A stretch of 64,000 nucleotides of DNA, from the NCBI RefSeq assembly GCF_003790525.1, contig NZ_CP033635.1. One strand, 5' to 3'. The translations under genes and the position numbers were made by a program. The stretch comes from Escherichia coli (GTDB taxonomy: Bacteria > Pseudomonadota > Gammaproteobacteria > Enterobacterales > Enterobacteriaceae). The notes beneath the pieces were generated by a model. It made no database searches. It worked only from the letters and a program-made list of their open reading frames with translations, and was not told the DNA's origin. Below, piece after piece: positions 57,563 through 63,678 of this stretch; position 1 is the stretch's first letter, and every line of letters begins with the position of its first letter.

Positions 57563-57721
57563 GTGAAAGATATTTTATTTTCTTCTGGCGTTGGTTTTGG
57601 CATTGGTGCTTTGTTTACAATCGTGCGATTACCTATTCCTGTTCCAAATGTATTGCCGGGTATATTATCCATCGTGTTTATGTATGTCGGATATCTGGTG
57701 GTGAAATACTTTATGCCATGA
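57563..57721 (+). CDS. Candidate small hydrophobic protein (52 aa), unverified
   Basis: GTG-initiated ORF with AAGG 7 nt upstream; encodes (M)KDILFSSGVGFGIGALFTIVRLPIPVPNVLPGILSIVFMYVGYLVVKYFMP; below the ORF-track length cutoff. Confidence 0.3.
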   Translation: MKDILFSSGVGFGIGALFTIVRLPIPVPNVLPGILSIVFMYVGYLVVKYFMP

Positions 57722-57762: not shown

Positions 57763-58647
57763 ATGGAACGCGTATATAGAACAGATCTTAAGTTGCTCCG
57801 TTATTTTCTTGCCGTAGCGGAAGAGTTGCATTTTGGTCGCGCAGCAGCGCGTTTAAATATGTCTCAGCCTCCGCTCAGTATTCATATTAAAGAGCTGGAA
57901 AATCAACTCGGCACGCAGCTTTTTATTCGCCATTCGCGCAGCGTCGTACTGACACACGCGGGCAAAATCTTGATGGAAGAATCGCGTCGATTGCTGGTGA
58001 ATGCAAATAATGTATTGGCTCGGGTTGAACAAATAGGTCGGGGAGAAGCAGGGCGGATTGAACTCGGGGTTGTGGGAACGGCAATGTGGGGACGGATGCG
58101 CCCGGTTATGCGGCGATTCCTTAGAGAAAATCCTAACGTTGAAGTTCTGTTTCGCGAAAAGATGCCCGCGATGCAAATGGCCTTGCTGGAACGCCGCGAA
58201 CTTGATGCCGGGATCTGGCGAATGGCGACAGAACCACCGACTGGTTTTACCAGCTTACGGTTGCATGAATCGGCGTTTCTGGTGGCGATGCCTGAAGAGC
58301 ATCATCTCTCATCATTTTCCACCGTCCCGCTGGAAGCGCTACGTGACGAGTATTTCGTTACAATGCCGCCCGTGTACACTGACTGGGATTTTTTGCAGCG
58401 AGTTTGCCAGCAGGTGGGATTTTCACCGGTTGTTATTCGCGAAGTTAATGAACCGCAAACGGTACTCGCCATGGTCAGTATGGGTATTGGTATCACATTG
58501 ATAGCGGACAGCTACGCGCAGATGAACTGGCCCGGTGTCATATTCCGTCCGCTCAAAGAACGCATCCCGGCAGACTTATATATTGTTTATGAAACGCAGC
58601 AGGTGACGCCCGCGCTGGTTAAACTGCTGGCGGCGTTGGCGCAGTAG
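57763..58647 (+). CDS. xapR: LysR-family activator of xapAB
   Basis: ORF trimmed to ATG 57763 (MERVYRTDLKLLRYFLAVAEELHFGRAAARLNMSQPPLS). Confidence 0.9.
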   Translation: MERVYRTDLKLLRYFLAVAEELHFGRAAARLNMSQPPLSIHIKELENQLGTQLFIRHSRSVVLTHAGKILMEESRRLLVNANNVLARVEQIGRGEAGRIELGVVGTAMWGRMRPVMRRFLRENPNVEVLFREKMPAMQMALLERRELDAGIWRMATEPPTGFTSLRLHESAFLVAMPEEHHLSSFSTVPLEALRDEYFVTMPPVYTDWDFLQRVCQQVGFSPVVIREVNEPQTVLAMVSMGIGITLIADSYAQMNWPGVIFRPLKERIPADLYIVYETQQVTPALVKLLAALAQ

Positions 58648-58673
58648 ATGAGAGGCACGGGAACTGCCGGACA

Positions 58674-58706
58674 TAGTTGGTCTGATAAGCGAAGCGCATC
58701 AGGCAA
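58674..58706. repeat. REP element
   Basis: ggtctgataagcgaagcgcatcaggc matches REP pattern. Confidence 0.55.
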
Positions 58707-58725
58707 TTTCGCAAATTGCAGATAG

Positions 58726-58753
58726 CAAAAAAGCGCCTTTAGGGCGCTTTTTT
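58726..58753. terminator. Bidirectional rho-independent terminator (tRNA operon / xapR)
   Basis: aaaaaagcgcc tttag ggcgcttttt: 6-bp GC stem flanked by A-run and T-run. Confidence 0.7.
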
Positions 58754-58757
58754 ACAT

Positions 58758-58833
58758 TGGTGGGTCGTGCAGGATTCGAACCTGCGACCAATTGATTAAA
58801 AGTCAACTGCTCTACCAACTGAGCTAACGACCC
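58758..58833 (-). tRNA. lysV: tRNA-Lys (anticodon UUU)
   Basis: Reverse complement is a 76-nt cloverleaf ending CCA with anticodon loop CUUUUAA. Confidence 0.95.
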
Positions 58834-58837
58834 GAAG

Positions 58838-58913
58838 TGGTGGGTGATGACGGGATCGAACCGCCGACCCCCTCCTTGTAAGGGAGGTGCTCTCCCAGCT
58901 GAGCTAATCACCC
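58838..58913 (-). tRNA. valY: tRNA-Val (anticodon UAC)
   Basis: 76-nt tRNA, reverse complement GGGTGATTAGCTCAGCTGGGAGAGCACCTCCCTTACAAGGAGG...CACCCACCA. Confidence 0.95.
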
Positions 58914-58959
58914 ACTTCGGTACTTCACATTTTTACAAGAAATTTAGCTGGCGAGAAAG

Positions 58960-59035
58960 TGGTGGGTGATGACGGGATCGAACCGCCGACCCCCTCCTTG
59001 TAAGGGAGGTGCTCTCCCAGCTGAGCTAATCACCC
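58960..59035 (-). tRNA. valX: tRNA-Val (anticodon UAC)
   Basis: Identical copy of the tRNA-Val sequence. Confidence 0.95.
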
Positions 59036-59079
59036 ACTTCTCAATTTCTTGCTACACGGCGGAGACTACATAAAGTAGT

Positions 59080-59155
59080 TGGTGGGTGATGACGGGATCG
59101 AACCGCCGACCCCCTCCTTGTAAGGGAGGTGCTCTCCCAGCTGAGCTAATCACCC
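59080..59155 (-). tRNA. valU: tRNA-Val (anticodon UAC)
   Basis: Identical copy of the tRNA-Val sequence; first gene of the operon. Confidence 0.95.
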
Positions 59156-59172
59156 CCGCTGTGTGGAGTCGC

Positions 59173-59200
59173 ATTATAGGGAGAGTTCAAAATGAGTCAA
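59173..59200 (-). promoter_or_regulatory. Sigma70 promoter of the valU-valX-valY-lysV tRNA operon
   Basis: On minus strand: TTGACT (59195-59200), 16-nt spacer, TATAAT (59173-59178), GC-rich discriminator, AT-rich UP-like sequence upstream. Confidence 0.7.
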
Positions 59201-59413
59201 CGCATTTTCTAAAGAAATTGTTCGTTCGTCGTAAATTTAAGCAAGATGATCGCAAAACAGGCCGTGCTGCGCAATTTCTCAACGAAAACAATAATGCATC
59301 ATGTAGCAACCCGAACTACATTGAGGAATCAGGCGGGAGTGATAGAATATCGCCCACTCAATTTTTCCAGGATTTGCCGGTTGTCGGCATCTTTCTAAAC
59401 GTAAGGCCATTTC

Positions 59414-60829
59414 ATGAAAATCAAAACTCGCTTCGCGCCAAGCCCAACAGGCTATCTGCACGTTGGCGGCGCGCGTACTGCTCTTTACTCTTGGCTTTTT
59501 GCACGTAACCACGGCGGTGAGTTCGTGCTGCGTATTGAAGACACCGATCTTGAGCGTTCCACGCCGGAAGCTATCGAAGCCATTATGGATGGCATGAACT
59601 GGCTGAGCCTGGAGTGGGATGAAGGTCCGTACTACCAGACCAAACGTTTTGATCGCTACAATGCGGTGATCGATCAGATGCTGGAAGAGGGCACTGCTTA
59701 TAAATGCTATTGCTCTAAAGAGCGCCTGGAAGCGCTGCGCGAAGAGCAAATGGCGAAAGGTGAGAAGCCGCGTTATGACGGTCGCTGCCGCCACAGCCAT
59801 GAGCATCACGCTGATGATGAACCGTGTGTCGTGCGTTTTGCTAACCCGCAGGAAGGTTCTGTTGTTTTTGACGATCAGATCCGTGGTCCGATCGAATTCA
59901 GCAACCAGGAGCTGGATGATCTGATTATCCGTCGTACCGATGGTTCTCCAACCTATAACTTCTGTGTAGTGGTTGACGACTGGGATATGGAAATCACGCA
60001 CGTCATCCGTGGTGAAGACCATATCAACAACACGCCGCGCCAGATCAACATCCTGAAAGCGCTGAACGCGCCCGTACCGGTTTACGCGCACGTTTCTATG
60101 ATCAACGGTGATGACGGTAAAAAACTGTCCAAACGTCACGGGGCGGTCAGCGTAATGCAGTATCGTGATGACGGTTATTTGCCAGAAGCACTGCTGAACT
60201 ATCTGGTGCGTCTGGGCTGGTCCCACGGCGATCAGGAAATCTTCACTCGTGAAGAGATGATCAAATACTTCACTCTGAATGCCGTCAGCAAATCTGCCAG
60301 TGCGTTCAACACCGACAAGCTGCTGTGGCTAAACCATCACTACATTAACGCACTGCCGCCGGAGTATGTGGCTACCCACTTACAGTGGCACATCGAGCAG
60401 GAAAATATCGATACCCGTAACGGCCCGCAACTGGCTGATCTGGTAAAACTGCTGGGTGAACGCTGCAAAACGCTGAAAGAGATGGCACAGACTTGCCGTT
60501 ATTTCTACGAAGATTTTGCTGAGTTCGATGCCGACGCCGCGAAAAAACATCTGCGTCCGGTAGCGCGTCAGCCGCTGGAAGTGGTTCGTGACAAACTGGC
60601 CGCGATTACTGACTGGACCGCTGAAAACGTTCATCACGCTATTCAGGCGACGGCGGATGAGCTGGAAGTGGGTATGGGTAAAGTTGGTATGCCGCTGCGT
60701 GTCGCCGTTACCGGTGCGGGGCAGTCTCCGGCACTGGACGTTACCGTTCACGCGATCGGTAAGACCCGCAGTATCGAGCGTATCAACAAAGCGCTGGCTT
60801 TTATTGCGGAACGCGAAAACCAGCAGTAA
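59414..60829 (+). CDS. gltX: Glutamyl-tRNA synthetase
   Basis: 471-aa ORF ([31 protein letters not shown]) with HIGH-type and KMSKS (KLSKR) motifs. Confidence 0.95.
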
Positions 60830-60848
60830 TTAGCGCATAAAAGATAAA

Positions 60849-60880
60849 CGGCAGGAGAAATACCCCTGCCGTTTTTTATT
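60849..60880 (+). terminator. gltX rho-independent terminator
   Basis: Stem cggcagg / cctgccg followed by ttttttattt. Confidence 0.75.
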
Positions 60881-60949
60881 TATCCGGTGCGCCGTAAAAC
60901 CCCGTCCTTCAGGGCGGGGATATAAGGCGCGGTTTTCCACCTGACCAGG

Positions 60950-61363
60950 TGTTTGCTGTTGTTCAATGTATTGGCGGATGACGGATATTGGCGCACCTCC
61001 GCAGCTACTGGCAAAATAGCCAGGACTCCACAAAACGCCTTTGTAGTAATACCTGACTGCAATATCTGGTCGATCTCGTCGCAGTCACCTACCCGATACG
61101 CCTTTGAGGCTGTTTACCAGACTGGATATCGCCAGTTTGGGAGGATAGTTAATTAACAAATGGACGTGATCTGGTTCGCCATCCATTTCAACCAGTTCAG
61201 CTTCAAAATCAGCACATACATTTGAAAAGTAAGTGCGTAGTTTTTCTGTCGCGTCATGGTCAAAAATCTGGCGTCGGTATTTGGGACAAAGACCAGGTGA
61301 ACATGCATCAGGAAAACACAATGCCTTCCACGCCGGATATCGGTTTCTTTTTTCACAGACCAA
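60950..61363 (-). pseudogene. tnpA: IS200/IS605 tnpA (HuH Y1 transposase), frameshifted
   Basis: N-terminal part in frame of 61085-61363 (…CPKYRRQIF…HVHLLINYPP…LKGVSGR*); C-terminal part (LWSPGYFASSCGGAPISVIRQYIEQQ) in a different frame at about 60950-61033. Confidence 0.65.
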
Positions 61364-61378
61364 AATATAATTTGACCT

Positions 61379-62589
61379 GTGAAACGACTACAGGCATTTA
61401 AATTCCAGTTAAGACCCGGTGGTCAACAGGAGCATGAAATGAGGCGCTTCGCAGGCGCATGTCGTTTCGTTTTCAATCGTGCTCTGGCGCTTCAGAATGA
61501 GAATCATGAGGCCGGTAATAAATACATCCCTTACGGGAAAATGGCTTCCTGGCTGGTTGAGTGGAAAAACGCCACTGGAACGCAATGGCTTAAAGATTCT
61601 CCCTCACAGCCATTGCAACAGTCACTGAAAGACCTTGAGCGGGCTTACAAAAACTTCTTCCAGAAGCGGGCTGCTTTTCCCCGATTCAAAAAGCGGGGAC
61701 AGAATGATGCATTCCGCTACCCGCAGGGCGTTAAGCTCGATCAGGAAAACAGCCGTATTTTTCTGCCGAAACTGGGCTGGATGCGCTACCGGAACAGCCG
61801 TCAGGTCACGGGTGTTGTGAAAAATGTCACGGTCAGCCAGTCCTGCGGTAAGTGGTACATCAGTATTCAGACAGAAAGTGAAGTATCAACTCCGGTTCAC
61901 CCTTCAGCATCAATGGTCGGGCTGGATGCCGGCATGGCTGAACTTGCCACGCTGTCAGATGGGGCACAGTCTTTGAGCCTGTAAACAGTTTTCAGAAAAA
62001 CCAGAAGACGCTGGCGAGACTTCAGCGACAGTTAAGCCGCAAGGTCAAATTCAGCAATAACTGGAAGAAGCAGAAACGCAAAATACAGCGACTGCATTCC
62101 CGTATCGCAAATATCCGCAGGGACTACCTTCACAAAGTCACAACGACCGTCAGCAAAAACCACGCAATGATAGTCATTGAGGATTTGAAGGTCAGCAACA
62201 TGTCAAAGTCAGCAGCGGGTACGGTCAGCCAGCCGGGGCGCAATGTCCGGGCAAAATCAGGTTTAAACCGTTCGATACTGAATCAGGGCTGGTATGAAAT
62301 GCGCCGCCAGCTTGAGTACAAGCAGCTCTGGCGTGGCGGTCAGGTGCTTGCTGTTCCGCCAGCGTACACAAGCCAGCGTTGCGCGTGCTGTGGTCATACA
62401 GCGAAAGAAAATCGCCTGTCACAAAGTAAATTCAGATTCCAGGTATGTGGATATACAGCGAACGCCGATGTAAACGGCGCTCGTAACATTTTAGCGGCGG
62501 GGCACGCCGTTCTTGCCTGTGGAGAGATGGTGCAGTCAGGCCGCCCGTTGAAGCAGGAACCCACCGAAATGATTCAGGCGACAGCCTGA
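61379..62589 (+). pseudogene. tnpB: IS605-family tnpB (RuvC-like RNA-guided nuclease homologue), single frameshift
   Basis: Frame 1: 61379-61984 (…VGLDAGMAELATLSDGAQSLSL*); continues in -1 frame from 61981 to 62589 (VNSFQKNQKTLARLQRQL…IEDLKV…CACCGHT…[10 protein letters not shown]); shift at agc-ctg-taa, consistent with a 1-bp deletion. Confidence 0.7.
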
Positions 62590-62628
62590 ACGTAGCAGGG
62601 ATCCTCGTCCTTCAGGGCGTGGAGGATG

Positions 62629-63541: not shown

Positions 63542-63570
63542 TTGACACATTCGGGCGGAATTCATATGAT
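63542..63570 (+). promoter_or_regulatory. Sigma70 promoter of the tRNA-Ala operon
   Basis: TTGACA (63542-63547), 17-nt spacer, TATGAT (63565-63570), GC-rich discriminator; about 30 nt upstream of the tRNA. Confidence 0.65.

Positions 63571-63602: not shown

Positions 63603-63678
<76 letters not shown>

Follow-up and report, generated by a model that had tools for sequence, protein, structure and literature searches.

The 258-bp stretch at positions 59156–59413 of the 64-kb Escherichia coli sequence analysed here (the window) is very probably the characterised gltX–valU control region, in which a valU promoter of the rrn P1 class stands back to back with an extended −10 promoter of gltX. The divergent promoter region is already known, having been described in 1990 and again in 1998. 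To judge by its title, the paper of Brun, Sanfacon, Breton & Lapointe 1990 (J Mol Biol 214:845; PMID 2201777) deals with this promoter pair, and Champagne & Lapointe 1998 (Mol Microbiol 27:1141) name in their title an influence of Fis on both non-overlapping promoters. The view that the tRNA operon and the synthetase gene form a coordinated control unit, which the initial annotation put forward as plausible, is to judge from these titles the hypothesis of Brun et al. 1990, whose Fis side Champagne & Lapointe 1998 pursued.

Positions 59156–59413 correspond exactly to the intergenic region between gltX and valU. The surrounding sequence (58650–59500) shows 100% identity to several complete chromosomes of E. 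coli, e.g. SMS-3-5, and occurs in 5,425 of the 5,426 complete genomes of this species. The RefSeq annotations of SMS-3-5 and K-12 MG1655 give a common gene order around the locus: xapA-xapB-xapR, then lysV-valY-valX-valU (K-12 names) on the opposite strand, gltX, yfeD-yfeC and two tRNA-Ala genes. The units next to the control region are the following:

58758–59155, minus strand: valU-valX-valY-lysV tRNA operon (three Val-UAC and one Lys-UUU), located with ARAGORN, Rfam and the RefSeq annotation
58725–58755, minus strand: Rho-independent terminator hairpin directly 3′ of lysV, from folding and PMC4176162
59414–60829, plus strand: gltX open reading frame, 471 amino acids

The valU operon gives rise to a polycistronic transcript with a Rho-independent terminator after lysV, which is removed by RNase P (PMC4176162). 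The corresponding hairpin in the window has a perfect 13-bp stem (−19.1 kcal/mol, z = −4.6), and none of 200 shuffled sequences was equally stable; it was absent from the output of a consensus terminator scan. Since it lies between the convergent xapR and lysV genes with an A-run on one side and a T-run on the other, the hairpin can serve as a terminator in both directions, including for xapR on the plus strand. An Rfam search of 58600–59700 at a permissive E-value returned the four tRNAs only and left the intergenic region and the gltX leader without a hit. Two further features of the neighborhood were observed. The gap between xapB and xapR contains a 52-amino-acid open reading frame (57563–57721, plus strand), for which the SMS-3-5 annotation gives a DUF1427 family protein. 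Downstream of gltX, between its stop codon and yfeD (60830–62628), the window strain carries about 1.7 kb that is absent from K-12, where the gap between the two genes is only about 50 bp; the SMS-3-5 annotation identifies this IS200/IS605 remnant as a degraded tnpA pseudogene and a frameshifted gene for a TnpB/InsQ RNA-guided endonuclease.

On the valU side of the control region we identified these elements:

59200–59195, minus strand: −35 hexamer TTGACT, part of an 11/12 promoter match together with the −10 hexamer
59179–59194, minus strand: 16-bp spacer CATTTTGAACTCTCCC, with CTCCC at its 3′ end
59178–59173, minus strand: −10 hexamer TATAAT, from the consensus scan
59165–59172, minus strand: discriminator GCGACTCC, 8 nt between the −10 hexamer and +1, G or C at 6 of 8 positions
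59156–59164, minus strand: 5′ leader ACACAGCGG, ending at mature valU (59155)
59202–59223, minus strand: A/T tract GAACAATTTCTTTAGAAAATGC resembling an UP element, −59 to −38, in the register of rrnB P1 and with a putative UP function
59228–59242: Fis-like 15-mer GCTTAAATTTACGAC (G, A/T core, C), centred at −71 relative to valU +1 and at −121 relative to gltX +1
59269–59283: second Fis-like 15-mer GCGCAATTTCTCAAC, a candidate site centred at −112 relative to valU +1 and at −80 relative to gltX +1

The minus-strand hexamers, the 16-bp spacing and the GC-rich discriminator were read accurately in the initial annotation, as was the assignment of this promoter to the valU-valX-valY-lysV operon, which begins immediately downstream. 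The arrangement TTGACT-16-TATAAT matches the sigma-70 consensus at 11 of 12 positions. At a threshold of 9/12, each kb should yield about 1.2 matches, so that consensus scans alone are no evidence for a promoter, and the possibility had to be considered that the match arose by chance and that the tRNA operon has its promoter at another place. Matches of at least 11/12 are rare: the whole 64-kb window contains two of them, where Markov simulations expect 0.6 ± 0.8, and both lie directly upstream of tRNA operons (valU and alaW). The alaW-side site, TTGACA-17-TATGAT, was found at 63542–63570 on the plus strand, upstream of the tRNA-Ala gene at 63603, and presumably corresponds to the alaW-alaX promoter that Brun et al. 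1990 mention in their title. Conservation was followed by searching one genome per species with GltX as the protein query, which returned 80 Enterobacteriaceae loci, all from close relatives, and the conservation counts refer to 72 distinct enterobacterial intergenic sequences. In all 72, TTGACT, the 16-bp spacing, TATAAT and GCGACTCC were invariant. Transcription start mapping points to the same place. Agrawal, Mohanty and Kushner (PMC4176162), by sequencing of circularised transcripts, placed the start of the valU operon 9 nt before the 5′ end of mature valU, compared with 7 nt in EcoCyc. In window coordinates the published start is A59164, 9 nt after the last base of TATAAT, and the EcoCyc-based start is A59162, 11 nt after the −10 hexamer. 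Because of the mapped start and the conservation, the chance-match reading is already refuted and its residual probability is negligible. The core promoter contains a single Escherichia-specific position in an otherwise invariant sequence: at 59188 (−24, in the spacer) the valU strand has G in Escherichia and C in nearly all other genera.

The assignment of the valU promoter to the rrn P1 class comes from an alignment of rrnB P1 from K-12 with the region upstream of valU. The two sequences align without gaps over about 100 bp, from the −71 15-mer through the A at the start. Common to both are a near-consensus −35 hexamer, a 16-bp spacer ending in CTCCC, TATAAT and an A start 9 nt after the −10 hexamer. 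The discriminators, GCGACTCC in valU and GCGCCACC in rrnB P1, are identical at 6 of 8 positions in the same register, and both are GC-rich, 8 nt long and begin with GCG. Further upstream, the valU A/T tract from −38 to −59 is in register with the rrnB P1 UP element AGAAAATTATTTTAAATTTCCT, and the 15-mer at −71 aligns column for column with GGTTGAATGTTGCGC of rrnB P1, which is likewise centred at −71, the position of Fis site I. The A/T tract of valU is 70% A/T and highly conserved by column conservation. It matches the UP consensus, in the form used here (after Estrem et al. 1998), at 13 of the 15 specified positions. The two promoters also differ: the −35 hexamer is TTGACT in valU and TTGTCA in rrnB P1, the UP-like tract of valU is less A/T-pure, valU has a single promoter whereas rrnB has tandem P1 and P2, and the valU upstream region, unlike that of rrnB P1, is shared with a divergent protein-coding gene.

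This comparison changes the view of the valU spacer. The initial annotation had counted it, correctly, as 16 bp and treated it as one base below the 17-bp optimum. Judged by sequence, the 16-bp spacer is a hallmark of the class of stable-RNA promoters and no defect, since rrnB P1 has the same spacer in exactly the same register and its length is invariant across the Enterobacteriaceae. A short spacer combined with a GC-rich discriminator gives rrn P1 promoters a short-lived open complex and makes them sensitive to ppGpp/DksA and to the initiating NTP, and by analogy the valU promoter may have similar kinetics. A literature search turned up no experimental work on how ppGpp/DksA affect valU. 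Other E. coli tRNA operon promoters, those of tyrT, leuV, argX and alaW, are likewise strong sigma-70 promoters with short leaders adjoining tRNA clusters, but the alaW promoter, with its 17-bp spacer and TATGAT, is unlike that of valU. The pArgX promoter forms stable open complexes and differs from rrnB P1 in its response to DksA (PMC5137449); extrapolation from the class to valU is therefore unsafe.

The initial annotation also put a gltX promoter in the region, with no position given. Such a promoter exists at 59321–59348, and the gltX side is organised as follows:

59321–59348, plus strand: main gltX promoter, with −35 TTGAGG (59321–59326), a 16-bp spacer and extended −10 TGaTAGAAT (59340–59348); 9/12 plus TG
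59356, plus strand: main gltX transcription start, 8 nt after TAGAAT, giving a 58-nt 5′ UTR
59331, plus strand: weaker gltX start, giving an 83-nt UTR
59375–59389, plus strand: small conserved hairpin UGCCGG-UUG-UCGGCA in the 5′ UTR, followed by a U-rich tract
59402–59416, plus strand: Shine-Dalgarno sequence TAAGG (invariant) and start codon ATG (at 59414)

Two gltX starts are published for K-12, at 2518752 (33 reads, 58-nt UTR) and 2518777 (19 reads, 83-nt UTR) (Kim et al. 2012, PMC3415461 supplement), and the K-12 alignment places them at 59356 and 59331. Start mapping on both strands had been suggested as the check on the promoters, with starts elsewhere as the outcome that would speak against them; the published valU and gltX starts fit the predicted promoters. 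The extended −10 motif TGnTAGAAT was present in 72 of 72 sequences with variation only at n, and TTGAGG with the 16-bp spacer in 69 of 72. The weak −35 hexamer of gltX is offset by the TG extension, a promoter type unlike the rrn-like valU promoter, and the gltX discriminator, ATCGCCC in E. coli, is unconserved across other genera by column conservation. Because the promoter types differ and the gltX discriminator is unconserved, the sequence lends no support to kinetic control shared with valU and speaks against it.

In the gltX leader, 5 pairs of the small hairpin were retained in 60 of 60 sequences, with weak covariation (one G-C pair is replaced by A-U in three sequences and by G-U in two), and the fold stability of the leader as a whole is ordinary (z = 0.21). 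With an ordinary fold, one small hairpin and weak covariation, we make no claim of a riboswitch, a T-box-like element or an attenuator. A scan hit in the leader that appeared terminator-like was rejected, being a short 6-pair stem with a poor U-tract. Brun et al. reportedly described a stable structure near the gltX ribosome-binding site and processing of gltX transcripts by RNase E. The length of the 5′ UTR is 56–60 nt, and in three genera it takes insertions of 115–126 bp. These insertions, in Intestinirhabdus, Entomohabitans and Buttiauxella brennerae, lie between the gltX start and the conserved hairpin, contain TGAAGTATGACGAGT and leave the distance between the promoters unaltered. They resemble an ERIC/IRU repeat. 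As the extra sequence is ERIC/IRU-like and falls inside the gltX 5′ UTR, a duplicated promoter and a degraded tRNA were both rejected as explanations for it.

The K-12 gltX–valU region is the same locus and is also 258 bp long. The valU promoter, the UP-like tract and the −71 Fis-like site are identical base for base in K-12 and the window, and so are the gltX extended −10, the 5′ UTR hairpin and the ribosome-binding site; the two differ by 8 substitutions, all within 59261–59359. One of them is at 59278, among the degenerate positions of the second Fis-like site, where the window has C and K-12 has G. On the gltX strand the K-12 base creates TTGTCA, seen in K-12 only, followed by a 17-bp spacer and TAAGGT. 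Speculatively, this TTGTCA-17-TAAGGT may correspond to the upstream, third promoter of gltX in the 1990 paper, and that promoter would then be weaker in the window strain.

Column conservation was near-invariant from the valU leader to about 59255, fell to a variable level over 59256–59316, and resumed over the gltX promoter, the 5′ UTR hairpin and the Shine-Dalgarno sequence. Of 5,426 complete E. coli genomes, 5,425 carry the 100 bp of the valU core and its upstream block (59156–59255) at 99% identity or more. In both Fis-like 15-mers, which match a degenerate motif (G-N13-C with an A/T-rich core), G1 and C15 were invariant in 72 of 72 sequences while the free internal positions of the motif varied, and in the second 15-mer these anchors sit within an otherwise variable stretch. 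An unusual pattern was observed in locus L005 (Escherichia sp. MOD1-EC7003, positions 2223–2512), which has a mosaic intergenic region with E. coli-like ends and a middle part of about 170 bp nearly identical to that of Klebsiella spallanzanii. The patch begins at the UP-like tract, takes in the gltX −10 and reaches ~35 nt into the 5′ UTR, and from its sequence it looks like inter-genus recombination within the control region that kept the promoter geometry.

The initial annotation had placed the start of gltX about 210 bp from the tRNA promoter. This figure holds for the distance from the valU −35 hexamer to the gltX ATG (214 bp) but not for the distance to the gltX promoter; from the valU start to the ATG (59414) it is 250 bp. 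The two core promoters are on opposite strands and do not overlap, with 121 bp between their −35 hexamers. We considered whether the promoters are mere neighbors that are regulated independently, with a spacing that is fixed by the packing of separate elements. Independent regulation would agree with the difference in promoter type, with the poor conservation of the ~60 bp between the promoters, with the distance of the conserved A/T block from the gltX start (−101 to −153), a long one for direct activation, and with the word 'non-overlapping' in the 1998 title. Other observations argue against it. A divergent Val(UAC)/Lys(UUU) tRNA cluster was found upstream of gltX in all 75 loci with enough upstream sequence, the usual gap between cluster and gene being 256–260 bp. 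The valU start and the main gltX start were 192 bp apart in 64 of the 72 distinct sequences, despite the diverging sequence between the promoters and the variable length of nearby spacers (the tRNA spacers within the operon vary from 29 to 61 nt). In addition, the second Fis-like site, with its invariant anchors, is centred at −80 relative to the gltX start, and the 1998 title has Fis influencing both promoters. On balance we consider independent regulation of mere neighbors rather unlikely.

The start-to-start distance stays fixed while the ~60 bp that separate the conserved blocks have diverged freely. Exceptional spacings were 191 or 193 bp in four sequences and 181–182 bp in four, that is, 1 bp more or less or about one helical turn shorter. 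These values are the basis for the suggestion that the distance is held in helical phase and that the two promoters, together with the Fis-like sites, form one phase-dependent nucleoprotein or supercoil-coupled unit, which we regard as doubtful; the one-turn-shorter spacings agree with a constraint on phase but represent only about two independent events, and the spacing is noted here as an observation and not as a result. We know of no earlier comparative demonstration of a phase-held valU–gltX spacing for this locus.

A conserved distance is also compatible with the twin-domain model, in which coupling would be topological and would not go through shared proteins: heavy valU transcription would leave negative supercoils behind the polymerase, and these would favour transcription of gltX in the opposite direction. 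The back-to-back arrangement, the 192 bp between the starts and the great strength of one of the promoters speak for this model; tRNA promoters are supercoiling-sensitive, as far as the reference list of PMC5137449 indicates. The conserved Fis-like sites, on the other hand, suggest the involvement of a protein. Extended −10 promoters, moreover, generally melt with less dependence on supercoiling, and purely topological coupling appears quite improbable.

The preferred reading remains that of a control region with an rrn P1-class valU promoter and an extended −10 gltX promoter. One sigma-70 promoter of the rrn P1 class produces a single valU-valX-valY-lysV precursor ending at the lysV hairpin terminator, and gltX is transcribed mainly from the extended −10 promoter (59356), with a weaker start at 59331. 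The two main starts, placed back to back at a distance of 192 bp, share one upstream region with the two conserved Fis-like sites. This arrangement is drawn from sequence features, conservation and mapped starts. The mechanism that we propose for it is based on the analogy with rrnB P1 and on the titles of the two papers on this locus, and from these we infer the function of the UP-like tract, Fis occupancy at the named 15-mers, a response to ppGpp and coupling of the promoters. The strength of the valU promoter would come from its near-consensus hexamers, contact of the alpha-CTD with the UP element and activation by Fis, and its short spacer and GC-rich discriminator would give a short-lived open complex sensitive to ppGpp/DksA, the initiating NTP and supercoiling. 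The gltX promoter, too, may be modulated by Fis at sites in this common upstream region, so that the output of tRNA and of synthetase would track growth conditions. The first of the two earlier studies reportedly proposed shared upstream elements and coordinate regulation, and the second is said to have located Fis sites in the intergenic region and to have found valU activated and gltX repressed. If Fis acts with opposite sign on valU and gltX, 'coordinated' need not mean 'co-activated'. In Salmonella the gltX–valU intergenic region had a FabR ChIP-chip peak and was listed as a putative target; we do not count FabR as a regulator of the pair, as the peak was among other peaks at tRNA and ribosomal-protein promoters and was left aside by its authors.

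As a discovery the present analysis has little importance, and the fixed 192-bp distance between the starts is its only mildly new point. Its value is that the sequence reading of the initial annotation was confirmed, the view of the valU spacer was corrected, and the gltX promoter and the start coordinates were supplied. The invariant valU core, the anchors of the Fis-like sites and the 192-bp distance may serve as a guide for work on the phasing of promoter coupling.
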